Source: Geotalea uraniireducens Rf4 (lineage in GTDB: Bacteria > Desulfobacterota > Desulfuromonadia > Geobacterales > Geobacteraceae). From it: a stretch of DNA of 32,000 nt. Shown here piece by piece: positions 3,641 to 30,759 of this stretch. Every line of letters starts with the position of its first letter. Position 1 is the first letter of the stretch. The DNA lies in the NCBI RefSeq assembly GCF_000016745.1, contig NC_009483.1:1560001-1592000 (forward strand). The letters are read 5' to 3'. A model generated the notes under the pieces. It ran no database searches. It was not told the DNA's origin and saw only the letters and a list, made by a program, of their open reading frames with translations. Both the position numbers and the translations under genes were made by a program.

Positions 3641-4048
3641 ATGGCCTTGATTACATGGAACGACAGCTACAGCGTGAAGGTTAAGCAGATGGATGAACAG
3701 CACAAGAAGCTCGTTGAGATGATCAACCAGCTCCACGACGCCATGAAGGTCGGCCAGGGGAAGCAGGTCGTCGGTGATGTGTTGAACGCCCTCGTTTCCT
3801 ATACCAAGACCCATTTCGCCAACGAAGAATCGCTGATGAAGACTTATGGTTATCCCGGTTACGAGGATCAGAAAAAGGCCCACGCCAACCTCGTTGGCCA
3901 GGTAGGTGACATCCAGAAGAAGTTTCTGGATGGGAATGCGCCTCTTTCCCAGGATGTGATGACATTCCTCAAGGAGTGGCTGGTCAAGCATATCCAGGGG
4001 GCGGACCAGAAATACGGACTTTATTTCAACAGCAAGGGGGTTTGCTGA
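3641..4048 (+). CDS. Bacteriohemerythrin (hemerythrin-like metal-binding protein)
   Basis: 135 aa starting MALITWNDSYSVKVKQMDEQHKKLVEMINQLHDAM..HF..EE..M......H...H..L, the classical bacteriohemerythrin pattern. SD AGGAGGA lies 7 nt upstream. Confidence 0.9.
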   Translation: MALITWNDSYSVKVKQMDEQHKKLVEMINQLHDAMKVGQGKQVVGDVLNALVSYTKTHFANEESLMKTYGYPGYEDQKKAHANLVGQVGDIQKKFLDGNAPLSQDVMTFLKEWLVKHIQGADQKYGLYFNSKGVC

Positions 4049-9849: not shown

Positions 9850-10365
9850 ATGAGTGACGAACAAAACCCCCAGGTCCTGATGGAAACTTCCATGGGAACC
9901 GTAAAAATCGAGCTGTTCAAGGACAAGGCGCCCATTTCCGTGCGCAACTTCCTCTCGTATGTGAAGGAAGGCTATTACGATGGTCTGATCTTCCACCGGG
10001 TTATCAAGACCTTCATGGTTCAAGGTGGCGGGCTGGACGTGGACATGCAGCCGAAGAAGACCAAATTCGCCATCAAGAACGAGGCAGCCAACGGCCTTTC
10101 CAATAAGCGCGGCACCCTTGCCATGGCCAGGACCAGCGTGGTGGACAGCGCAACATCCCAGTTCTTCATCAATGTCGTGGATAACTCTTTCCTCGACTAC
10201 AAGGGGAAAAGCCCCGATCTGTTCGGATATGCCGTGTTTGGGCAGGTAATTGAAGGAATGGAAGTGGTGGACGCCATTAAAGAGGTGAAGACGGGGTCGA
10301 AGGGTGGTCACTCGGACGTGCCGGTTGAGCCTGTGTTCATCAAGTCTATGACAATCGTTGAATAG
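9850..10365 (+). CDS. ppiB: Peptidyl-prolyl cis-trans isomerase, cyclophilin type
   Basis: 171 aa: [39 protein letters not shown] is upstream. Confidence 0.9.
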
Positions 10366-10388
10366 TGAGTGGTGAGTTATGAGTAGTG

Positions 10389-10424
10389 ACGGCCGCGGGA
10401 AATCCTGCGGCCGTTATTATTTGT
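10389..10424 (+). terminator. Rho-independent terminator after the cyclophilin gene
   Basis: ACGGCCGCGGGA-aa-TCCTGCGGCCGT (one mismatch) followed by TATTATTTGTT. Confidence 0.6.
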
Positions 10425-10508: not shown

Positions 10509-11678
10509 ATGGAAATGAAGGATTTTATCTTTACATCTGAGTCTGTCTCCGAAGGCCATCCCGACAAGGTTGCCGACCAGGTTTCCGATGCTATTCTTGA
10601 CGCTATTCTTACCCAGGACCCCAAATCGCGGGTTGCCTGCGAAACCTTGGTGACCACCGGCATGACGGTTGTTGCCGGGGAAATCACCACCAACGCCATC
10701 GTCGATTATCCGAAGATCGTCCGTGAGACCATCAAGGAAATCGGCTACAACGACTCGGCCATGGGCTTCGACTGGGAAACCTGCGCAGTGCTTACCTCCA
10801 TCGACAAGCAATCTCCGGACATCGCTCAAGGGGTTACCGAAGGCGAAGGGCTGTTCAAGGAGCAGGGGGCCGGTGACCAGGGGCTCATGTTCGGCTACGC
10901 CTGCAATGAGACGCCGGAGTTGATGCCGATGTCGATCCTGCTCTCCCACAAGCTGGTGAAGAAGCTTGCCGACGTCAGAAAGAGCGGCGTGCTGGACTTC
11001 CTTCGCCCGGATTCCAAGTCCCAGGTTTCCATCCAGTACATCAACGACAGGCCCGTGCATGTGGATACCGTGGTCATCTCTTCCCAGCATACCCCCGAGG
11101 TTTCATACGAAACCATCAAGGAAGGGATCATCGAAGAGGTCGTGAAGAAGATCATCCCTGAGGAATTGATGGACGCCAAGACCCGTTTCCTTATCAACCC
11201 GACCGGCCGGTTCGTCATCGGCGGGCCGATGGGGGACTGCGGTCTTACCGGCCGCAAGATCATCGTTGATAGCTACGGCGGGCACGGCGCCCACGGCGGC
11301 GGTGCATTCTCCGGCAAAGACCCCTCCAAGGTGGACCGTTCCGCCGCATACATGGGGCGTTACGTGGCCAAGAACCTGGTTGCCGCCGGTCTCTGCGAAA
11401 AGTGCGAAGTACAGGTGGCATACGCCATCGGCGTTGCAGAGCCTGTTTCCGTCATGGTCGATACTTCCGGCACCGGCAAGATTCCTTCTGCAAGGATCGC
11501 CCAGATTGTCCGCGAAGTCTTCGACCTCCGCCCCCGCGCCATCATCGAGCAGCTTGACCTGCTCCGTCCGATCTACAAAAAGACTGCCGCTTACGGCCAC
11601 TTCGGCCGCGAACTGCCTGAATTCACCTGGGAGCGCACCGACAAGGTTTCCATCATCAGGGAAAAGGCAGGAATTTAA
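10509..11678 (+). CDS. metK: S-adenosylmethionine synthetase
   Basis: [56 protein letters not shown]. The start is at MEMKDF (10509) after GAGGAGGA, giving 389 aa, the normal MetK length. Confidence 0.95.
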
Positions 11679-11687
11679 CGGCAGGCG

Positions 11688-11762
11688 CGAGGTCCGAGGT
11701 CCGAGGTCCGAGGATCGAGGATCGAGGATCGAGGATCGAGGATCGAGGATCGAGGATCGAGG
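11688..11762 (+). repeat. Heptanucleotide tandem array: (CGAGGTC)x3 (CGAGGAT)x7 CGAGG
   Basis: Counted directly. It starts 10 nt after the metK stop codon and ends 16 nt before the terminator stem. Confidence 0.95.
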
Positions 11763-11778
11763 TAAAACCCTGAATAAG

Positions 11779-11808
11779 AAAGGCCGGTGAAATTTCACCG
11801 GCCTTTTT
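11779..11808. terminator. Rho-independent (probably bidirectional) terminator shared by the convergent metK and response-regulator genes
   Basis: AAAGGCCGGTGAAA/TTTCACCGGCCTTT is a perfect stem, with TTTTATTGTTTT on the + strand and TTTCTTATT on the - strand. Confidence 0.85.
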
Positions 11809-11816
11809 ATTGTTTT

Positions 11817-13741
11817 GTGCGCCAGGCATGGCGCGTGGCGCGTAAGCGCCATCCAATTGGGTATGGTGCCTGATTGGTGACTTGGAGGTGAAAGTCCTCT
11901 TCGGACCCTGATGGTGGGAACCGATAGCTGAACAGCAAGGGTGTCCGGGGCGACCCGGAATCTGAAGGAAGCTGTAGGCAAAGTCCTGGCCCGACGAACA
12001 GGAATCGCATATGAGGCAGCCACATCTGGGCGAGAAGGCAAACAGATTCAAAGCCCGATAACCATCCAGAAAGATGTGGAAGTAGATGCGGCGGGTATAT
12101 GGGATGAAGGTCACGCGCATTACCCTGGGAGGTCTGTCAACCTGCCTTGTGCTACCGGCATCGAGAGGTGCCGGGATGGGTTGGCAGAAGTCAGCAGAGG
12201 CCATACGAGTCGGAATAACCGACCGACAAAGGGCCGAACTTGAAGTAAGCGGACAGGAGCCTTGAGTTTCGATGACGACAGGAGCAGCAGAAGGCCGGGT
12301 TGGGATACCCGGCGCCAGCCCGGAGGGTAGCGGTTGGAAACCGCGAGAGAAAGGGAGAGGTGCGGCAAACGTCACGGGAAGGAAAGCAGCTCACTGGCCG
12401 GAAGCGGCAACGGGACTGATGGAGAAGATCGTCAGTCGCGGCAACATGATGGCGGCATACTCACGGGTAATGCGCAACAAGGGAGCGCCCGGCGTCGATA
12501 ACATGCCGGTAACGGCCCTGAAGGGCTACCTACAGGAGGAATGGCCGCGCATCAGAGAAGAACTGCTGACGGGAACGTATCACCCGCAACCGGTGCGGAA
12601 AGTAGAAATTCCCAAACCGGGAGGCGGCACACGGATGCTGGGAATTCCCACCGTCCTTGACCGACTCATTCAGCAGGCGGTGCATCAAGTTTTGAGCCCG
12701 CTGTTCGACCCTGGTTTCTCCATAAGTTCCCACGGGTTTCGCCCTGGACGGAGCGCCCATCAAGCGATCAAGGCAGCTCGGAAGTATGTAGAGAGCGGCC
12801 TTAGGTGGGTGGTTGACATTGACCTTGAGAAATTTTTCGACCGAGTCCACCACGACACCCTTATGTCGCTGGTGAAACGCAAGGTTGGAGACCGTCTGGT
12901 GCTGTCCCTTATCGACAGCTACCTTAAGGCAGGGATACTTGAAGGAGGAGTGACGTCACCCCGGTTGGAAGGCACGCCGCAAGGCGGGCCTCTCTCGCCG
13001 CTGCTGTCCAACATCCTCCTCGACGAACTGGACAAGAAACTGGAAAGAAGGGGCCATAAGTTCTGCCGCTATGCCGACGACGCAAATATCTATGTTGCAA
13101 CGAGGAGAAGCGGCGAGCGTGTCATGGCCTCAATTACCGGCTACCTGTCCGAGCGGCTCAAGCTCACGGTCAACCAGGGCAAAAGCGCGGTTGACCGTCC
13201 GTGGAAAAGGTCGTTTCTGAGTTACAGCATGACCCGGCACCGCAAACCGCGGCTTACCGTGGCCAAGAAAGCGGCTGCCAGGCTCAAGGCCAACCTCAAG
13301 ACGATCTTTAGGCGGGGAAGGGGTCAGAACATCCAAACCACCGTTGAAGAGACAACCCCGAAACTTAGGGGTTGGTTAAACTACTTTCGGTACGCGGAAG
13401 TAAAAGGCATCTTCGAGGAACTGGACGGATGGCTGAGACGTAAACTGCGTCGCATTCTCTGGAAGCAGTGGAAGCGCCCCAAGACGCGAGCAAAGAAACT
13501 GATGCGGCGGGGATTATCGGAGGCAACTGCATGGCGGTCGGCCACAAACGGCCGCGGCCCCTGGTGGAATGCAGGGGCCGCGCATATGAACAAAGCTGTT
13601 CCGAAATTCTACTTCGACAAACTGGGGCTGGTATCACTCATAGACCAGCTTCACCGACTTCAACGTACTTCATGAACCGCCGTGTACGGAACCGTACGCA
13701 CGGTGGTGTGGGAGGACGGCGGGAGCAATCCCGCCTCCTAC
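11817..13741 (+). mobile_element. Group II intron, class C (IIC)-like, about 1.9 kb
   Basis: The 5' end is GTGCG at 11817. An internal RT/maturase ORF is present. Domain V-like helix at about 13678-13707 (CCGCCGTGTACGG-AA-CCGTACGCACGGTGG) has a 2-nt bulge and a CGC triad instead of AGC. A domain VI-like helix is GGAGGACGGCGGGAGCAATCCCGCCTCC, ending ..CTAC at 13741. It is inserted about 10 nt after a terminator hairpin, in the same orientation. The 3' boundary is good to a few nt only. Confidence 0.85.
12419..13675 (+). CDS. ltrA: Group II intron reverse transcriptase/maturase (no endonuclease domain)
   Basis: KGAPGVDNM (RT0/1), PKPGGGTRMLGIPTVLDRLIQQA, GTPQGGPLSPLLSNILL, RYADDANIYV (YADD catalytic box), and maturase X domain RGWLNYFRYA. 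The C-terminus is GPWWNAGAAHMNKAV..LGLVSL with no HNH. The start was set at MEKIVSRGNMM (12419); the upstream part of the track ORF is intron RNA. Confidence 0.9.
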   Translation: MEKIVSRGNMMAAYSRVMRNKGAPGVDNMPVTALKGYLQEEWPRIREELLTGTYHPQPVRKVEIPKPGGGTRMLGIPTVLDRLIQQAVHQVLSPLFDPGFSISSHGFRPGRSAHQAIKAARKYVESGLRWVVDIDLEKFFDRVHHDTLMSLVKRKVGDRLVLSLIDSYLKAGILEGGVTSPRLEGTPQGGPLSPLLSNILLDELDKKLERRGHKFCRYADDANIYVATRRSGERVMASITGYLSERLKLTVNQGKSAVDRPWKRSFLSYSMTRHRKPRLTVAKKAAARLKANLKTIFRRGRGQNIQTTVEETTPKLRGWLNYFRYAEVKGIFEELDGWLRRKLRRILWKQWKRPKTRAKKLMRRGLSEATAWRSATNGRGPWWNAGAAHMNKAVPKFYFDKLGLVSLIDQLHRLQRTS

Positions 13742-13764
13742 CCGATTTCGTCCCCAACTCCCCG

Positions 13765-13820
13765 TTCCTTTAACCTTTGTCCTCGTTCCTCTATTCTTTG
13801 TCCTCGTTCCTTTGTCCTCG
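13765..13820 (-). repeat. Heptad-periodic GGA-rich repeat array (CGAGGACAAAGGAA-type units at 14/21-nt spacing), read on the minus strand
   Basis: The minus strand reads GCGAGGACAAAGGAACGAGGACAAAGAATAGAGGAACGAGGACAAAGGTTAAAGGAACGGGG. Three copies of GGAACGAGGACAAAG are present, and the array overlaps the last codons and stop of the response-regulator gene. Confidence 0.75.
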
Positions 13821-14522
13821 CGCTTCGCGCGAAAACCTGTACCCCACCCCCCGCACCGTCTGGAAGTAGACCGGTTTTGCCGGGTCCGGCTCGAAATATT
13901 TTCGCAGCCGGACGATAAAGTTGTCGAGGGTCCGTGTCTCGGCATCGGAGGAATAGCCCCAGACGCTTTCCAGCAGAGTTTTGCGCGGTATCGCTTCCCC
14001 TTCCTTCTGGAAAAACAGGGACAGCATCTTCACTTCCAGATCGGTCAGGTCGATCTCCCCCTGGGGCGTTTTGGCCCGGTAGGAGAGGAGAAATACATCG
14101 TTGTCGCCGAAGCGGTAACCTTCTTCAACCGGCTCCGGCCGGTACCAGGCCGAACGGCGCAGCATGCCCCCCACCCGCAGCAGGAATTCATTGAGATTGA
14201 ACGGTTTGGTCAGGTAATCGTCAGCCCCGCCGGTAAGACCGGCGATCCGGTCACGCTCGTCCGAGCGGGCCGTCAACATCAGCACCGGCACCCTCGCATC
14301 GAGCTGCCGGATTTCACGGCAGACGGCAAAACCATCAATCCCCGGCAGCATCACGTCGAGGATGATGAGGTCGAAGCGTTCGTATCTGACCCGTTCCAAG
14401 GCGTCTTCCCCGGTTTCCACATGACTCACCCGGTAATTTTCCAGTTCCAGGTTGAAGCAGATCCCCCGAGCCAGGTGGATTTCGTCTTCAACCAGGAGGA
14501 TGTGCGGTTTGTCTTCGTTCAT
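13791..14522 (-). CDS. OmpR/PhoB-family DNA-binding response regulator
   Basis: ILLVEDE, LIILDVMLPGIDG, LTARS, KPF, and the C-terminal winged helix LT..E..LL..F......R..L...VWG......R.LD..I.RLRKY..TVRGVGYRF. The start is at ATG 14522, forming an ATGA overlap with the kinase stop codon. Confidence 0.9.
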   Translation of the reverse strand: MNEDKPHILLVEDEIHLARGICFNLELENYRVSHVETGEDALERVRYERFDLIILDVMLPGIDGFAVCREIRQLDARVPVLMLTARSDERDRIAGLTGGADDYLTKPFNLNEFLLRVGGMLRRSAWYRPEPVEEGYRFGDNDVFLLSYRAKTPQGEIDLTDLEVKMLSLFFQKEGEAIPRKTLLESVWGYSSDAETRTLDNFIVRLRKYFEPDPAKPVYFQTVRGVGYRFSREARGQRNEDKE

Positions 14523-21223: not shown

Positions 21224-21790
21224 ATGGGTGATGCAGAATTGCATGGATATGCGATAGCGACGGAGATGGCGGGGGATGAGGGGGTCCAGCTGCTCTCCGG
21301 CCTGGGCAAGGGAGAGTTGATAAAGATCATCATTGATGACGCGAAAAACTGGCTGGCCCACGACGGGCTCTGGTTCCAGGCAGTGGAGAGCGTCCACGGC
21401 ATGGACGAGGCCATTGCCGCCGACCGGGCCGCCTGGGAGAAGTTCACCGTCATCGAGGCAAAGCGGATCATGGAACGCCTCGGCATGAAGCCCGGCGGCG
21501 GCATCCCTGCCCTGGTGGAATGCCTCAAGCACCGCCTCTATGCGCGGCTGAACCTCCAGGACGTCATGGAACAGAGCGACAGCCGGGTGGTGTTCCGCAT
21601 GGTGGATTGCCGTGTCCAGTCGGCTCGCAGGCGCAAGGGGCTCGCCGACTTCCCGTGCAAGACGGTGGGAATCGTCGAGTACGCGGAGTTCGCCAGGACC
21701 ATCGACCCGCGCATCAGGACCCGGTGTATCGCCTGTCCGCCGGATGCGCATCCGGATCAATACTGGTGCGCCTGGGAATTTACTCTTTGA
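21224..21790 (+). CDS. Hypothetical Cys-rich protein (possibly DUF6125-like; name from memory, unverified)
   Basis: The ORF contains LAHDGLWFQAVE...AAWEKFTVIEAKRI and the C-terminal pattern C..Q....K....FPCK......C..CPPD.....WCAWEF. The start was set at ATG 21224 after GAGGGGGG; the track ORF begins at a TTG. Confidence 0.65.
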   Translation: MGDAELHGYAIATEMAGDEGVQLLSGLGKGELIKIIIDDAKNWLAHDGLWFQAVESVHGMDEAIAADRAAWEKFTVIEAKRIMERLGMKPGGGIPALVECLKHRLYARLNLQDVMEQSDSRVVFRMVDCRVQSARRRKGLADFPCKTVGIVEYAEFARTIDPRIRTRCIACPPDAHPDQYWCAWEFTL

Positions 21791-21975
21791 GGAACGAGGA
21801 AAAAGGAGCGAGGAACGAGGAACGAGGAAAAAGGAACGAGGAGCGAGGAAAAAGGAACGAGGAGCGAGGAAAAAGGAGCGAGGAACGAGGAAAAAGGAGC
21901 GAGGATAATGGCGCGAGGTGAGAGCCTAGAGCCTAGAGGTTTTCCTCGAACCTCGAACCTCGATCCTCGATCCTC
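21791..21975 (+). repeat. Heptad-periodic purine-rich array with a short inverted block
   Basis: Counted directly: 12 forward CGAGG cores spaced 7 or 14 nt apart, then 2x AGAGCCT, then TTTT, then an inverted block (CCTCGAA x2, CCTCGAT x2, CCTC). The array fills the whole intergenic space from the stop codon at 21790 to about 30 nt before the icmF start. Confidence 0.9.
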
Positions 21976-22003
21976 ATATATACGTGAAACGAGGAGAACC
22001 GAC

Positions 22004-25000
22004 ATGCACACAACCGCCGCAGCACCCTATACATCCAAAAACAAGATCCGTTTCGTGACCGCAACCAGCCTGTTCGACGGTCACGACGCAGCTACCAATA
22101 TTATCCGTCGCATGCTCCAGTCCTCGGGGGCCGAGGTGATCCACCTGGGGCACAATCGCTCCGTGGATGTGATCGTCACCGCCGCCATTCAGGAGGACGC
22201 CCAGGGGATAGCGGTCAGTTGCTACCAGGGTGGCCACGTGCCGTTCTTCAAATACATCTGCGACCTGCTCAAAGAGCGGGGCGCCGGGCATATCCGGGTC
22301 TTCGGCGGTGGCGGCGGGGTGATCGTCCCCGAAGAGATCCGGGAGATCGAAGGCTACGGGGTGAGCAAGATATTCTCACCCGAAGACGGCCGGCGCATGG
22401 GGCTGCAGGGGATGGTCAACCACATGCTGGAGCTATGCGATTTCCAGCCGGAACGGGACCTGGATACGGAAATCGAACGGCTTAAAGGACGGGACATCCG
22501 CTCGGTCAATACCCTCATCTCCCTGGCCGAACAGGCGGTCCACGAGCATACGGAAGGGTATGGAAAGGTCAGGGAGCGGGTTCGCGCCATGGGGAGCAAG
22601 GTGCCGGTACTGGGCATTACCGGCACCGGCGGGGCGGGGAAGAGCTCCCTTACCGATGAGCTGGTGCGCCGATTGATACGGGATTTCCCGGAGAAGAGCG
22701 TGGCGATCCTGGCGGTAGACCCTTCCCGGCAGCGGACCGGCGGCGCGCTCCTGGGCGACCGGATCAGGATGAACTCCATCAATACCGACCGGGTCTACAT
22801 GCGCTCGCTGGCCACCCGCGACTCCCGTTCCGAGCTGTCCGCCGCCATTGAAGACGCCATTGCCGTGGTGCGGGCGGCAGGCTTCGACCTGGTGATCGTC
22901 GAGACCTCCGGCATCGGCCAGGGGGATGCCGGGGTGGTGGAGATCTGTGACGTATCCCTCTACGTCATGACCTGCGAATTCGGCGCGCCGACCCAGCTGG
23001 AAAAGATCGACATGCTCGACTTCGCCGACATCGTCGCCCTCAACAAGTTCGAGCGGAAGGGTTCGGAGGATGCCATGCGCAACGTGCGCAAGCAGTACCG
23101 GCGCAACCGCAACCTGTTCGACCTCGCCGACGAGGAGCTGCCGGTGTTCGGCACTATCGCTTCCCAGTTCAACGACCCCGGCACCAATGTCCTTTACCGG
23201 GCGGTGCTCGACCGGTTCAACGAGAAGAAGGGGCTCGGCTGGCAGTCGCAGCTTGCCATTACCGAGCGGGAGAGCCTGAAGAAGTACATCATCCCATCCG
23301 ACCGGATTCATTACCTGGGGGAGATCGTCCAGTCGGTGCGCGGCTACCGGAAAACCGCGGCGGAGCAGGCGCAGATCGCCCGCACCCTCTTCCAGCTCAA
23401 GGGGACCCGTGCCCTCCTTGCCGACAGTGACGCGACCGCGGCGGGGGTTGACCAACTGATAGGATATTACGAGGCCAAGCTCCGGGATGAGCCGCGCCGG
23501 ATCATCGAGAGCTGGCCGGGAATGAAGCAATCGTACCGTCAGGACGCCCTCGTGACAAGTGTGAGGGACAAGGAAATCCGCACCGAACTCTACACCACCT
23601 CCCTCTCCGGGACCAAAATCCCCCGGGTCTGCGTCCCCGATTACGAGGACTGGGGGGAGATCGTCAAGTGGAGCATGAAGGAGAACGTGCCGGGCTCGTT
23701 CCCCTTTACCGCCGGGGTCTTCCCCTTCAAGCGGGTCGAGGAGGACCCTAAACGACAGTTCGCCGGCGAGGGGACCCCGGAGCGGACCAACCGGCGCTTT
23801 CACTACCTTTGCCGGGACGACGGCGCCAAGCGCCTTTCCACGGCCTTCGACAGCGTTACCCTCTACGGCGAGGACCCGGATTTTCCTCCCGACGTCTATG
23901 GCAAGGTGGGGGAGAGCGGCGTCTCCATCTGCACCGTGGAGGACGTGAAGAAGCTCTATGCCGGCTTCGACCTCTGCGCCCCCTCCACCAGCGTCTCCAT
24001 CACCATCAATGGCCCGGCGCCGATGATGCTCGCCATGTTCTTCAATGCGGCCATCGACCAGCAGGTGGACCGGTTCCGCGGGGAAAAGGGGCGTGAGCCC
24101 GCCGCCGCCGAGTACGAGCTGATCCGGGCTTGTACCCTGCAGACCGTGCGCGGCACTGTCCAGGCCGACATCCTCAAAGAAGACCAGGGGCAGAACACCT
24201 GCATCTTCTCCACCGAGTTCGCCCTGAAGATGATGGGTGACATCCAGCAGTACTTCATCGACAAGCAGGTGCGGAATTATTACTCCGTCTCCATCAGCGG
24301 CTACCACATCGCCGAGGCCGGGGCGAACCCCATCAGCCAGCTCGCCTTCACCCTTTCCAACGGCTTCACCTATGTGGAGTATTACCTTTCCCGGGGGATG
24401 CACATCGACGACTTCGCCCCGAACCTCTCCTACTTCTTCTCGAACGGCCTCGACCCGGAGTACACGGTGATAGGCCGTGTGGCGCGGCGCATCTGGGCGG
24501 TAACCATGCGGGAGAAATACGGCGCCAACGAGCGGAGCCAGAAGCTCAAGTACCACATCCAGACCTCCGGCCGCTCGCTCCATGCCCAGGAAATGGACTT
24601 CAACGACATCCGCACCACCCTACAGGCGCTGATGGCCCTCTACGACAACTGCAACTCGCTGCACACCAACGCCTACGACGAGGCGGTCACGACACCCTGC
24701 GAGGAGTCGGTGCGCCGCGCCATGGCGGTGCAGATGATCATCACCAAGGAGTTGGGGCTGAACAGGAACGAGAACCCGCTCCAGGGGGCGTTCATTATCG
24801 ACGAACTGACCGACCTGGTGGAGGAGGCTGTGCTGGCCGAGTTCGAAAGGATCGACCAGCGGGGCGGGGTGCTCGGCGCCATGGAGACCCAGTACCAGCG
24901 GAGCAAGATCCAGGACGAGTCCATGCTTTACGAGCACAAGAAGCACTCGGGCGAGCTCCCCATCATCGGCGTCAACACCTTCCTGAACCCCCGCGCCGAT

Positions 25001-28839: not shown

Positions 28840-30759
28840 ATGAGCTGTATCTTCGGTTTTTTACGGCGTGATGGTGCTTCAATCGCACCGCTTACCATGG
28901 AGACCATGCGGCGTCACATGGCTGAATGGGGGCCGGACGGCGGTGACGTGTTGCTGGACGGTCCTGCGGCGATGGGACAGATGCGTCTGTTCAGCACGCC
29001 TGAGGCGACGTATGAGAAGATGCCGCTCATTGATGCGGCAGAGGGCTTCATCTTTACCGCGGCCGGACGCGTGGACAACCGGCAAGAGTTGATCGCGGAT
29101 TGCGGATTGCGGATTGCCGAATATGAAAAATGCGGAATCCCGGATGGTGAAGTGATCCTTCAGGCCTATCGCAAATGGGGCGAGGATTGCCCGAAGCGCA
29201 TTTACGGAGACTGGTCTTTCGCCGTATGGCATCCCCGTGAACGCAGGCTTTTTCTCGCCCGCGACCACTATGGCAACACATCGCTTTATTATTATGCAGA
29301 CCGGCATGTGTTTGCCTTTGCTTCTGACCGCAAAGCATTGCTCGCACTGGACCTTGTGCCCAAAGAGATGGACGAACTCTACCTTGCACAGGTGCTGGTT
29401 TCGTGGCCTGCTTATCACGGAGAGCGCACCATCCACACGCCTGTTAAGCGCCTGCCGCCTGCGCATTGCCTGACAGTTTCGCATGAACGCCTCGATGTGC
29501 GCCGGTATTGGCGATTGGAAGAGACTCCCGAACTGCGCCTGCCACGGCGTAATGATTATGTAGAGGCATTTCGCGATCTGTTCGATGAGGCGGTACGCTG
29601 CAGACTGAGGGTTGCAAACGGCGGCAACACACAAGGAAATGGGGCCGGGCAAATTGCCGTAACACTCAGCGGGGGGCTGGATTCCGGGTCGGTTACTGCC
29701 ACGGCGGCGCATTTCCTGCGTAACGAAGGTAGACGCCTGACAGCTTTTACTTCTGTGCCGCTTTCGGATACAAGCGCCTATGTAAAAAAGAACTTTGGCG
29801 ATGAGTTTCCCTTTGCCCGGTCTACCGCGCAATTCGCCGGGAATGTAGATCATCTGCCCATCACCGCGGCAGCAATTACGCCCATACAGGCAATTCGTCG
29901 GATGCTTCGGATTCACGGCGAGCCGGCGCACGCCGCTGGAAATTTTTTCTGGATGCTGGAGCTGGAAGAGACTGCACGTGCCTGTGGCTGCCGTGCCCTG
30001 CTCACCGGTCAGGTGGGTAACGGTGGCATCTCATGGACAGGTGATGTGTTCTCACAGCCGCTCGCATTGCAGTTACGCCATTATGGCTGGAGGAAATGGA
30101 CAAAGGAAAGCGCAAAGCGGATTGCATCCCCTGTCTTGCTGAAGGCATACCGCCGCGCGCGAATGCCGAAGGATTATTCATGGTGCCAATCATCCGCCAT
30201 CCATCCTGATTTTGCTCGCCGCTTGAACCTGCTGGAACAACGATTGAACGACCCTGCCGAGCATCCGCGCAGTCCGCAAGAAAAGCGTTTTCAGATTCTC
30301 CAGCCCGGCTGCTCCTTTGTCGGTGCGCTGCATGCCCAAATGGGGGCAGCTCACGGGCTGGAAATACGCGACCCTACTGCAGATGCACGTGTCCTCGCCT
30401 TCACGCTCTCGGTGCCCGACTACATCTTCATGGACCCGACGACGGGGCTGGATCGTTGGCTCATCCGCGAGGCCATGAAGGGCCGTCTGCCGGACGAGGT
30501 GCGTTTAAATCGCGAGAGGGGTCGTCAGGCGGGCGACCTTGTCCCTCGGCTTCGCGCCTGCGCCGACGAGGTAGAAACCGCCCTGGACGAGTTGGCCGTG
30601 GGGCCTGCGGCCGCCTATCTAAATGTGCCTTATATGCGCGAGGTGTGGGCAATGGTCCGCACCGATGACACTCCGGAAGCTTTTCGCAAGTCGGTAACCA
30701 TTCTCACCAGAGGCATCATGGCCGGATTGTGGGTGAATGGGTTCTACAATGTAACCTGA
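28840..30759 (+). CDS. Asparagine synthetase B-like ATP-dependent amidotransferase (lasso-peptide-cyclase-like)
   Basis: 639 aa. The N-terminal Ntn-like domain starts MSCIFGF, so the Cys is not at position 2. The PP-loop SGGLDS lies at nt 29668-29685 (IAVTLSGGLDSGSV), followed by an AsnB-type C-terminal domain. SD AGGAG is 5 nt upstream. Confidence 0.88.
   Translation: MSCIFGFLRRDGASIAPLTMETMRRHMAEWGPDGGDVLLDGPAAMGQMRLFSTPEATYEKMPLIDAAEGFIFTAAGRVDNRQELIADCGLRIAEYEKCGIPDGEVILQAYRKWGEDCPKRIYGDWSFAVWHPRERRLFLARDHYGNTSLYYYADRHVFAFASDRKALLALDLVPKEMDELYLAQVLVSWPAYHGERTIHTPVKRLPPAHCLTVSHERLDVRRYWRLEETPELRLPRRNDYVEAFRDLFDEAVRCRLRVANGGNTQGNGAGQIAVTLSGGLDSGSVTATAAHFLRNEGRRLTAFTSVPLSDTSAYVKKNFGDEFPFARSTAQFAGNVDHLPITAAAITPIQAIRRMLRIHGEPAHAAGNFFWMLELEETARACGCRALLTGQVGNGGISWTGDVFSQPLALQLRHYGWRKWTKESAKRIASPVLLKAYRRARMPKDYSWCQSSAIHPDFARRLNLLEQRLNDPAEHPRSPQEKRFQILQPGCSFVGALHAQMGAAHGLEIRDPTADARVLAFTLSVPDYIFMDPTTGLDRWLIREAMKGRLPDEVRLNRERGRQAGDLVPRLRACADEVETALDELAVGPAAAYLNVPYMREVWAMVRTDDTPEAFRKSVTILTRGIMAGLWVNGFYNVT

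Follow-up and report, generated by a model that had tools for sequence, protein, structure and literature searches.

A strain-variable heptanucleotide array between the metK stop codon and terminator of Geotalea uraniireducens, a member of a family of stop-proximal repeats

The metK locus and related arrays in the window

The stretch of DNA analysed here (the window, 32,000 nucleotides of Geotalea uraniireducens Rf4) holds about 27 genes, among them metK, which encodes S-adenosylmethionine synthetase (Table 1). The coding sequence starts at the ATG at 10509, with a GAGGAGG Shine-Dalgarno sequence immediately 5′ of it, and MetK homologues of 389 amino acids are present in Geotalea and Geomonas, the nearest named ones being from Geotalea species. 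Downstream of the stop codon lies a tandem array of heptanucleotides, (CGAGGTC)x3 (CGAGGAT)x7 CGAGG, that spans 11688-11762 (75 nt, 10.7 units). An earlier note, made from the letters of this DNA, had given this composition, and it proved exact: a regular-expression search recovered every unit with 0 mismatches, placing the seven CGAGGAT copies at 11709-11757 and the terminal CGAGG at 11758-11762, and TRF scored the array 108 with 100% matches. The lack of mismatches indicates that the array is recent. The array was likewise correctly said to start 10 nt after the metK stop, the gap being 9 nt and the first array base the tenth. Its sense strand is rich in G (44% vs 19% C), and the 75 nt contain eleven GAGG motifs, matching the count of Shine-Dalgarno-like motifs noted before, and seven GGA motifs. 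In addition, the array contains seven GATC and seven TCGA palindromes spaced 7 bp apart, and its longest G-run is GG. The spacer that precedes it is possibly the seed from which it grew.

An A-rich linker connects the array to a strong intrinsic terminator. The distance of 16 nt previously assigned to this interval was only approximate, as the scanned stem begins 14 nt after the array and the GGCCGG core 19 nt after it. With the metK stop codon on its 5′ side and the only intrinsic terminator on its 3′ side, the array should belong to the metK 3′ UTR, an assignment of the earlier note that the anatomy of the locus supports. The 5′ side of the hairpin is A-rich, so the terminator is plausibly bidirectional and common to metK and the convergent response-regulator gene in relatives that lack the intron described below.

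Table 1. Positions of the metK gene, the heptamer arrays and associated elements in the window
Feature	Position	Strand	Remarks
PPIase array TAG TGAGTGG TGAGTTA TGAGTAG TGA	10363..10389	+	starts at the PPIase stop; terminator next
metK (S-adenosylmethionine synthetase) CDS	10509..11678	+	three S-AdoMet synthetase Pfam domains; TAA at 11676-11678
9-nt spacer CGGCAGGCG, stop to array	11679..11687	+	kept in L128-130, partly in L131
Sub-array (CGAGGTC)x3	11688..11708	+	regular expression on the window; unit single-copy in L128-130
Sub-array (CGAGGAT)x7 + terminal CGAGG	11709..11762	+	seven GATC sites
A-rich 14-nt linker TAAAACCCTGAATA, array to terminator	11763..11776	+	kept in L128-130
Intrinsic terminator hairpin, core GGCCGGTGAAATTTCACCGGCC, and T-run	11777..11814	+	14 pairs, 7 of them GC; stem 11777-11808
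Group II intron with RT/maturase ORF (12272-13675)	11815..13747	+	Rfam RF02001, RF01998, RF00029; RVT_1 and GIIM
Convergent partner array, AGGAACGAGGACAA-type, 7/21-nt period	13757..13822	-	covers the response-regulator gene end
DUF6125 array (GAGGAAC / GAGGAAA / AAGGAGC)x~16.7	21788..21905	+	TRF, Pfam; largest related array
Inverted partner array CGAGGTT/CGAGGAT (plus strand CCTCGAA/CCTCGAT)	21944..21975	-	28 nt upstream of the icmF-like start (22004)

Directly adjoining the T-run of the terminator is the 5′ end of a group II intron (GTGCG at 11815). Its domains D1-D4 were located by Rfam at 11944-12234 and domains V/VI at 13675-13746, and its 3′ boundary is uncertain by about 1-2 nt. The Rfam and Pfam assignments of this region to a group II intron with an RT/maturase rule out an ahcY gene with a SAH riboswitch 3′ of metK. 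The intron is absent from all 13 of the metK loci examined in relatives, and the intron-free junction can be reconstructed from one of them (L128). Insertion directly 3′ of Rho-independent terminators is known for bacterial class C-like introns (PMC8919778). The intron lies outside the array and now splits an ancestral module composed of array, terminator and array.

Related arrays are found elsewhere in the window. The pattern GAGGNNNGAGGNNNGAGG, which describes three units with a GAGG core, occurs 13 times against 0.02 expected from shuffles, and the TRF output is dominated by period 7 and its multiples. Altogether, the 32 kb contain four arrays with a GAGG core and one TGAGTNN array. Besides metK, three genes, encoding a PPIase, a response regulator and a DUF6125 protein, carry a related heptamer array at or over their stop codon, and at all four gene ends the G-rich strand coincides with the sense strand of the gene in question. 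The PPIase array repeats the architecture seen at metK with a different unit. The partner array that faces metK from beyond the intron overlaps the last ~9 codons and the stop codon (13791-13793) of the response-regulator gene, so that the C-terminal tail REARGQRNEDKE* is encoded by the array; relatives without the extension end in SRGA* or SRKS*. At the DUF6125 gene, the stop codon is supplied by the first array unit, TGAGGAA, and the GAGGAAC array and its inverted partner are predicted to pair with each other (21780-22010, z = -3.2). Arrays thus encroach on the ends of reading frames, to which they give a stop codon or a new C-terminal tail. The metK tract is one local member of this NGAGGNN-type family, whose arrays, in this genome and in many bacterial phyla, directly follow or overlap stop codons, have the sense strand as their G-rich strand and often form convergent pairs around a terminator.

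Turnover of units and modules between strains

The array was compared with 13 metK loci from relatives (L121-L133; Table 2), the strain-level evidence coming from ten orthologous loci. In 12 of the 13, metK and the response-regulator gene converge on a common hairpin terminator and are 81-151 nt apart; in the remaining one (L131) another gene lies downstream of metK. Some heptamer array stands at the metK stop across the Geotalea and Geomonas loci, and the turnover of its unit is complete.

Table 2. Arrays following the metK stop codon in relatives
Locus	Relation to the window	Array
L121, L122, L124	96-99% DNA identity, conspecific	(GTGAGTA)3 and a different terminator
L123	about 96% DNA identity, conspecific	decayed: GTGAGAA GTGAGTA GTTTGAA GTGAATA
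L125 (Geotalea sp. SG265)	83% DNA identity over metK	degenerate GTGACNA: GTGACGA GTGACTA GTAATAT GTGACGT
L126, L127 (G. toluenoxydans)	95% MetK identity	GTGATTG (GTGACTG)3 (GTGACCG)2 GTGATTT
L128-130 (three metagenome samples)	87-91% DNA identity	CGAGGTC-CGAGGAT-CGAGG, 2.7 units; spacer and terminator as in the window
L131	84% DNA identity over metK	CGAGGTT CGAGGTC CGGGGTA
L132 (Geomonas subterranea)	86% DNA identity over metK	(GTTCTAC)3
L133 (G. sulfurreducens)	82% DNA identity over metK	no array

The metagenomic lineage L128-130 has, between its convergent metK and response-regulator genes, a hairpin identical to that of the window. There, the counterpart of 11709..11762 consists of one CGAGGAT and CGAGG, and each unit that is single in the 2.7-unit allele has been amplified in the window, one to three copies and the other to seven. 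The metK array therefore changes by the gain and loss of whole units. This directly supports the proposal of the earlier note that the array is a slipped-strand variable tract, the two alleles having 10.7 and 2.7 units between the same flanks and terminator. Scans of metagenomes anchored on the 5′ junction or on the terminator side yielded no further alleles of this exact array.

A second kind of change involves the module as a whole. When the window was compared by BLAST with conspecific contigs, homology ended at 11682 and returned at 13834, inside the response-regulator gene. This indicates that the array-terminator-array module is exchanged as a unit within the species, and the more distant lineage retains the module of the window. 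Even strains of a single species differ in the unit they carry, and among them the entire module is replaced. The other arrays behave in a similar way. The PPIase array has ~3 units in the window, whereas L128 has 7 (TGAGTTG) and L121 at least 10 (TGAGTAG), and in each genome the response-regulator gene is accompanied by an array of its own in sense orientation (GTTCGAG/GTTCGAA in L125 and L126; GTTCTAT/GTTCTAC in L132). The closest relatives (95-96% protein identity) lack the DUF6125 arrays; they carry an unrelated 104-nt palindromic element between DUF6125 and icmF and differ at the C-terminus of the protein (EFTVENG* against EFTL*). Because the arrays at metK, PPIase, the response regulator and DUF6125 differ in this manner among relatives, they must be quickly gained, lost, resized and supplied with new units.

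These alleles bear on the roles that the earlier note had suggested for the metK tract. The array is predicted to fold on itself (-34.8 kcal/mol, z = -2.5) into a rod of GGUCC:GGAUC helices. The terminator hairpin dominates the predicted folding of the metK 3′ region. The rod would depend on the chance mixture of two units, and the 2.7-unit allele is predicted to be unable to form it. The suggestion of a barrier to 3′ exonucleases consequently survives for the predicted fold of this allele and fails as a conserved property of the locus.

Extremely unlikely, in turn, is the proposal that the metK 3′ UTR acts through its eleven GAGG/GGA motifs as a sponge that binds CsrA or, by mimicry of the Shine-Dalgarno sequence, 30S subunits. 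It draws on the motif density (11 GAGG and 7 GGA in 75 nt, then a terminator) and on a weak likeness to the PrrB/RsmZ model of Rfam (RF00166; 18.8 bits, E = 0.022 in a 301-nt search), but this score is far under the gathering score of 44, and no Rfam family matches the array at gathering thresholds. Furthermore, the seven GGA triplets fall in helices or internal loops of the predicted MFE structure and not in hairpin loops. The comparison of relatives weighs in the same direction: the sister allele L128-130 has 3 motifs only, and the units GTGAGTA, GTGACYG and GTTCTAC of conspecific and congeneric orthologous loci contain neither GGA nor GAGG. Since most orthologous units are devoid of GGA, G. 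sulfurreducens has no array, and neither length nor sequence is conserved among related strains, which the earlier note had itself listed as a refuting outcome, a conserved sponge is not supported. Bacteroidota do not rely on Shine-Dalgarno pairing, and similar arrays occur there among the matches listed in the survey that follows.

Gene-end arrays across phyla

With each GTDB species represented by one genome, at least 120 loci matched (CGAGGNN)x3-CGAGG exactly. This number reflects the breadth of this one pattern and not its abundance, and random bases would lead one to expect about one match. The loci listed lie outside Geobacteraceae and belong to Bacteroidota, Acidobacteriota, Verrucomicrobiota, Planctomycetota, Actinomycetota, Alpha-, Beta- and Gammaproteobacteria, Cyanobacteria (L004), Firmicutes, Chloroflexota and others. 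Their position relative to genes was analysed with a strand-symmetric test independent of gene calls, in which the G-rich strand had to contain an ORF, at least 100 codons long, that ended within 40 nt of the 5′ edge of the array. Among the matches listed, 33 of 99 arrays had such a sense ORF end, compared with 13 of 99 in the mirror arrangement (p = 0.0045) and 8.3% at random positions (p = 1.7e-12). The orientation bias relative to the upstream gene, which the earlier note had named among the points to check, is thus present at the level of the class. In the same set of listed matches, the stop codon often lies 0-6 nt from the array, and the in-register unit xTAGGxx occurs 13 times at the 5′ edge vs 2 at the 3′ edge. 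Again among the matches listed, a heptamer array of opposite polarity within 150 nt accompanies 31 loci on the downstream side and 3 on the upstream side (p = 8e-7), and the unit of this partner is often complementary to the first at 6 of 7 positions, giving long imperfect hairpins.

The survey also helps to assess a function exerted by the DNA itself, through a non-B structure (G-quadruplex, slipped or cruciform), the cluster of seven GATC sites or a protein-binding tract. Such a function is highly improbable. The G-rich strand and the tandem repetition recall the quadruplex-forming GGGNATC repeats (PMC4692102), the GATC and TCGA palindromes recur every 7 bp, and inverted partner arrays could extrude as cruciforms. 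Against this, the G-runs of the metK array are only 2 long and do not provide the four tracts of at least 3 G that define a G-quadruplex, which rules out a three-tetrad structure; about 59% of the units in the cross-phylum sample of listed matches are without GGG, and the orthologous GTGAGTA and GTTCTAC arrays have neither G-runs nor GATC. A polarity signal of the replication strand, of the KOPS or Chi kind, is excluded by the presence of arrays in opposite orientations within ~100 nt of each other.

The dominance of convergent pairs across phyla, among the matches listed, would likewise suit a mobile or exchangeable cassette, similar to a MITE or REPIN, in which the heptamers of an array-terminator-inverted-array element act as terminal inverted repeats. 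The module is palindromic overall, one unit recurs at several loci of a genome, and the module has been swapped between strains whose flanks are 96-99% identical, the lineage at 87-91% keeping that of the window. Nevertheless, a cassette is very unlikely. Neither target-site duplications nor a transposase or RAYT gene were seen, spacers and terminators vary between loci, and each arm is sense-oriented after its own gene, for which an independent origin accounts equally well; the swap itself can be explained by homologous recombination between strains.

Origin of the metK array and comparison with known systems

The reading that best fits the evidence takes the metK tract as a heptanucleotide VNTR, young and hypermutable, in the spacer of a 3′ UTR, without a metK-specific function, and we consider it probable. 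The repeat would arise by slipped-strand mispairing in replication or repair, and the array would fill the space that selection tolerates, between the last codon that is needed and the stem of the terminator. It would have no sequence-dependent regulatory role particular to metK, and any effect of this allele would be generic, as its 3′ UTR is 56 nt longer than that of the 2.7-unit allele and may fold into an imperfect rod. The behaviour of the class matches published work on heptamer SSRs (PMC4692102; Mrazek, 2007, as reported in PMC4679880). With phase-variable loci the tract shares the nature of a hypermutable SSR, its length being polymorphic among relatives, but it is situated downstream of the stop codon of a housekeeping gene, ahead of the terminator, and not in a reading frame or promoter where it could switch expression on or off.

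Neutral slippage alone does not explain the whole picture. It leaves unaccounted for the preference for the sense strand and for stop codons across phyla, the predominance of convergent pairs over divergent ones (31 vs 3 loci among the matches listed), the presence of related units at different genes of one genome and the persistence of an array at the metK stop across Geotalea and Geomonas. These biases point to either a directional, transcription-linked mutation process or a generic selected function.

The second of these possibilities would mean that sense arrays next to stop codons are selected for a job that tolerates changes of sequence, their copy number tuning the effect; we regard it as rather unlikely. 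The job could be to slow 3′ exonucleases by means of a structured 3′ UTR or a REP-like stem-loop, to act as a terminator auxiliary or insulator, or to offer an antisense pad, C-rich, G-poor and unstructured, at which Rho stops convergent read-through. The biases in orientation and placement and the convergent layout across phyla (among the matches listed) speak for such a role, as do the frequent 6/7 complementarity of partner units in long imperfect hairpins and the presence of an array at the metK stop in several genera despite the turnover of units. The DUF6125-icmF arrays stand where relatives have an unrelated palindromic element; the predicted self-fold of the metK array (z = -2.5) and the predicted pairing at 21780-22010 (z = -3.2) agree with a structural task, and the antisense strand of most units is C-rich and G-poor. 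On the other side, neither length nor unit, nor even the presence of an array, is conserved at given loci, and the 2.7-unit allele is unable to fold. The Geomonas unit GTTCTAC is not G-rich, hence its antisense is not rut-like. Cyanobacteria lack Rho, and arrays occur there as well (L004). Together with the Geomonas unit, the cyanobacterial arrays weaken an antisense Rho-loading pad as a universal account. Moreover, no expression effect attributable to such repeats was seen by Rehm et al. (PMC4692102). A role in providing stops in all three frames was also considered and rejected: from a reading of the units, it is true of TGAGTAG and GTGACTG and false of CGAGGNN and GTTCTAC.

A broader proposition is that sense-oriented, G-rich, stop-anchored heptamer arrays (NGAGGNN, GGGNATC and others) form a pan-bacterial class of gene-end elements with one cause, which we hold to be doubtful. 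The cause may be a dedicated generator that depends on the direction of transcription, for example R-loop-driven expansion where the nascent RNA becomes free of ribosomes, or it may be a selected role at the 3′ end, as terminator auxiliary, REP-like stabiliser or insulator against convergent and antisense transcription. Under the selected role, the genome-specific 'dialects' of units may imply a trans-acting reader. If the proposition were true, the metK array would be a freshly expanded case of a real and unrecognised functional category.

Regarded as a young VNTR, the metK repeat is a strain-variable microsatellite and not a conserved regulator, and for that reason an annotation as CsrA sponge or riboregulator would be inappropriate. 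The repeat can be used as a strain-typing (VNTR) marker for Geotalea, and short-read assemblies may break at heptamer arrays of this kind. Of wider interest is that, in many phyla, such arrays start at stop codons, face the way of the gene, pair convergently around terminators and can rewrite the last codons, a bias in placement and orientation that has been noticed and never explained within the literature searched. The metK locus offers natural alleles of 0, 3 and 11 units together with swapped units and is therefore a handy system for setting effects on termination, mRNA stability and antisense transcription against directional mutation.

The earlier note was not aware of a described equivalent. 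This does not hold for stop-proximal G-rich heptamers in general (PMC4692102) or for other heptanucleotides of Geobacter (PMC2700814), and it does hold for the CGAGGNN family, since no description of that family or of such arrays in Geotalea, and no later functional study, was found in the literature searched. The closest known system is that of the GGGAATC arrays of Xanthomonas and the GGGGA(C/T)T arrays of Nostoc, whose function, according to the authors, is yet to be elucidated (Rehm et al., 2015; PMC4692102). In common with the arrays described here, these are tandem 7-nt G-rich units, mostly intergenic and sometimes in convergent inverted pairs, with one unit at many loci per genome; they are transcribed, and they vary greatly in length and sequence between close relatives at the same gene pairs. 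They differ in the host, here a member of Geobacteraceae, in the preferred number of 4 units as opposed to 10.7 at metK, and in their class-defining G-quadruplex property, which the CGAGGNN unit with its GG runs lacks. The metK array has head-to-tail 7-nt units (10.7, where at least 3-4 define the class) within 50 nt after a stop, with related arrays dispersed over the 32 kb and variation between relatives; given that it has only GG runs, it fits the broader heptamer-SSR class and not the G4-forming subclass. Heptanucleotides were the commonest class of long SSRs (LSSR5-11) in many large-genome, non-pathogenic bacteria, and polymerase slippage was proposed as their origin (Mrazek, Guo & Shah, 2007, as relayed in PMC4679880 and PMC4692102). 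The metK array shares with that class, so summarised, the heptanucleotide SSR and the proposed origin by slippage, the 2007 work being a statistical survey.

The REP/BIME elements of enterobacteria are dispersed after stop codons, often between convergent genes, and their 3′ UTR stem-loops can stabilise the upstream mRNA. Inverted pairs of arrays occupy a like position, and at DUF6125-icmF they stand in place of a palindromic element. In contrast to these variable tandem heptamers, REPs are fixed palindromes of 20-40 nt tied to RAYT transposases, and neither a RAYT gene nor a REP consensus was seen in the window. The metK array resembles them in position and has a weak predicted self-fold, but it contains no fixed palindrome. 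CsrB/RsmZ RNAs also combine multiple GGA motifs with an intrinsic terminator, but they are independent sRNA genes conserved between species, with GGA in hairpin loops. The metK array is a repeat in a 3′ UTR with its GGA in predicted stems and internal loops; its orthologues have GGA-free units, and it does not match the family model.

The STRR heptamers of heterocystous cyanobacteria, reportedly described by Mazel et al. in 1990 with the consensus units CCCCAGT, TTGGTCA and CAACAGT, are intergenic tandem heptanucleotides with many copies per genome and a function unknown there, and the likeness to them drawn in the earlier note is upheld. These units are unlike CGAGGNN, however, and Geotalea is not a cyanobacterium, so the metK array falls outside STRR proper. 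These repeats are cited for Calothrix PCC 7601 in PMC4692102. In the same family as Geotalea, Geobacter metallireducens contains 49 copies of elements (Gmet_H4##) with four tandem GGACCGG/GGGACCG units (Aklujkar et al., 2009; PMC2700814). Similarly to the arrays studied here, these are dispersed G-rich heptanucleotide tandems, annotated as putative regulatory elements. They have another unit, fixed at ~4 copies inside a larger conserved GC-rich element, and are found within genes as well as between them, with no association with stop codons or terminators reported; the units of the G. metallireducens heptanucleotide elements (GGACCGG, MTYCTGA) rule out that they are the same family (PMC2700814). 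Finally, the TAACTGA direct repeats of marine Beggiatoaceae and cyanobacteria (MacGregor, 2015; PMC4679880) are also genome-wide intergenic heptamers with a strong orientation to genes and a scattered phylogenetic distribution. Contrary to the Geotalea arrays, which follow stop codons and are G-rich, they face start codons in 5′ UTRs, have an AT-rich unit and contain stops in every frame. In conclusion, stop-proximal, sense-oriented heptamer arrays are already a known kind of repeat, to which the CGAGGNN array at the metK gene of Geotalea adds a member.

Turnover of the metK module and the neighbouring PPIase array

The comparison of window positions 11682-13834 with the four conspecific metK loci (L121-L124) demonstrated that the flanks are 96-99% identical, whereas the module of array, terminator and inverted array between metK and the convergent response-regulator gene is completely different. 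The window's module is also present in a lineage that shares only 87-91% identity. The history of the module is uncoupled from that of its flanks, through either recombination or cassette exchange. In the (CGAGGAT)7 block of the metK array (11709-11765, + strand), GATC and TCGA palindromes each occur seven times, 7 bp apart; this dense cluster of potential targets for methylation or restriction is found in no orthologue. Copy number varies at the PPIase array, which has about 3 units in the window, 7 in L128 of the sister lineage (3825-3880) and at least 10 in the conspecific L121 (3805-3880). This array is a second VNTR, separated by 1.3 kb from the metK array that lies downstream of it.

The earlier note had listed a sponge for a protein such as CsrA among the possible roles of the metK array. 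The Rfam match to PrrB/RsmZ at 11686-11811 (+) is sub-threshold, with 18.8 bits where the gathering score is 44 (E = 0.022 for the 301 nt searched). Repeated GGA motifs followed by a terminator cause this match, which is a resemblance only.

Features of the window associated with heptamer arrays and the metK terminator
Feature	Position	Strand	Description
PPIase array	10363-10389	+	stop-array-terminator layout as at metK; unit TGAGTNN
Complete group II intron	11815-13747	+	Rfam D1-D4 and DV/VI matches; RT/maturase ORF 12272-13675
Array-encoded response-regulator gene end	13791-13832	-	heptamer array supplies last ~9 codons and stop
DUF6125-icmF spacer arrays	21788-21975		16.7-unit GAGGAAC-type array and inverted CCTCGAA/CCTCGAT array, filling the spacer
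GATTGCG x3.9 heptamer repeat	29091-29117	+	inside glutamine-amidotransferase domain of asparagine-synthase-like gene 28840-30759

Heptamer arrays at gene ends

Among the GTDB species-representative matches listed (L001-L120), (CGAGGNN)≥4 arrays are spread over numerous bacterial phyla. They tend to lie directly behind ORF ends with the G-rich strand as sense, and the stop often falls within an in-register variant unit, xTAGGxx (13 at the 5′ edge versus 2 at the 3′ edge). Among the same matches, opposite-polarity partner arrays were found downstream at 31 loci and upstream at 3, often with near-complementary units and sometimes with a gap of only 3-7 nt.

Arrays also reach into coding sequence. 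The array-derived tail of the window's response regulator reads REARGQRNEDKE before the stop, and in the relatives compared (L121, L125, L126, L128) the protein ends in SRGA or SRKS, or in other array-derived tails (TRKAVRSEYEK). Protein C-termini are rewritten by heptamer arrays. The GATTGCG repeat encodes ...DCGLRIAE..., and three units make 21 nt, so that the reading frame is kept.

The DUF6125 stop codon is part of the first array unit, TGAGGAA, and the C-terminus is longer in the closest relatives than in the window (EFTVENG-stop). In these relatives (L134-L138 compared), an unrelated 104-nt palindromic element takes the place of the arrays. The icmF start follows the CCUC-rich inverted array at a distance of 28 nt, and this array could pair either with the GAGG array or with GAGGAG, the Shine-Dalgarno sequence of icmF. 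Long heptamer arrays like those of the window are expected to break short-read assemblies, and the contigs of the closest DUF6125 homologues (P0121-P0124) are all very short (0.7-4.3 kb). No heptamer array was found at this locus in the relatives inspected (L134-L137), so the contig breaks there have another cause.

The group II intron behind the metK terminator

In 12 of the 13 related loci, all intron-free, the terminator hairpin (11777-11814) is common to metK and the response-regulator gene; L131 has another downstream gene. The intron, absent from all 13, now splits the response-regulator gene, with its array at 13757-13822, from this hairpin. To arrive at the metK-side hairpin, response-regulator transcripts would now have to traverse the intron in antisense, a distance of about 1.9 kb. 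The intron is inserted directly 3′ of the T-run of the metK terminator, in the orientation of metK, a position that fits the homing of class C-like introns just behind intrinsic terminators.
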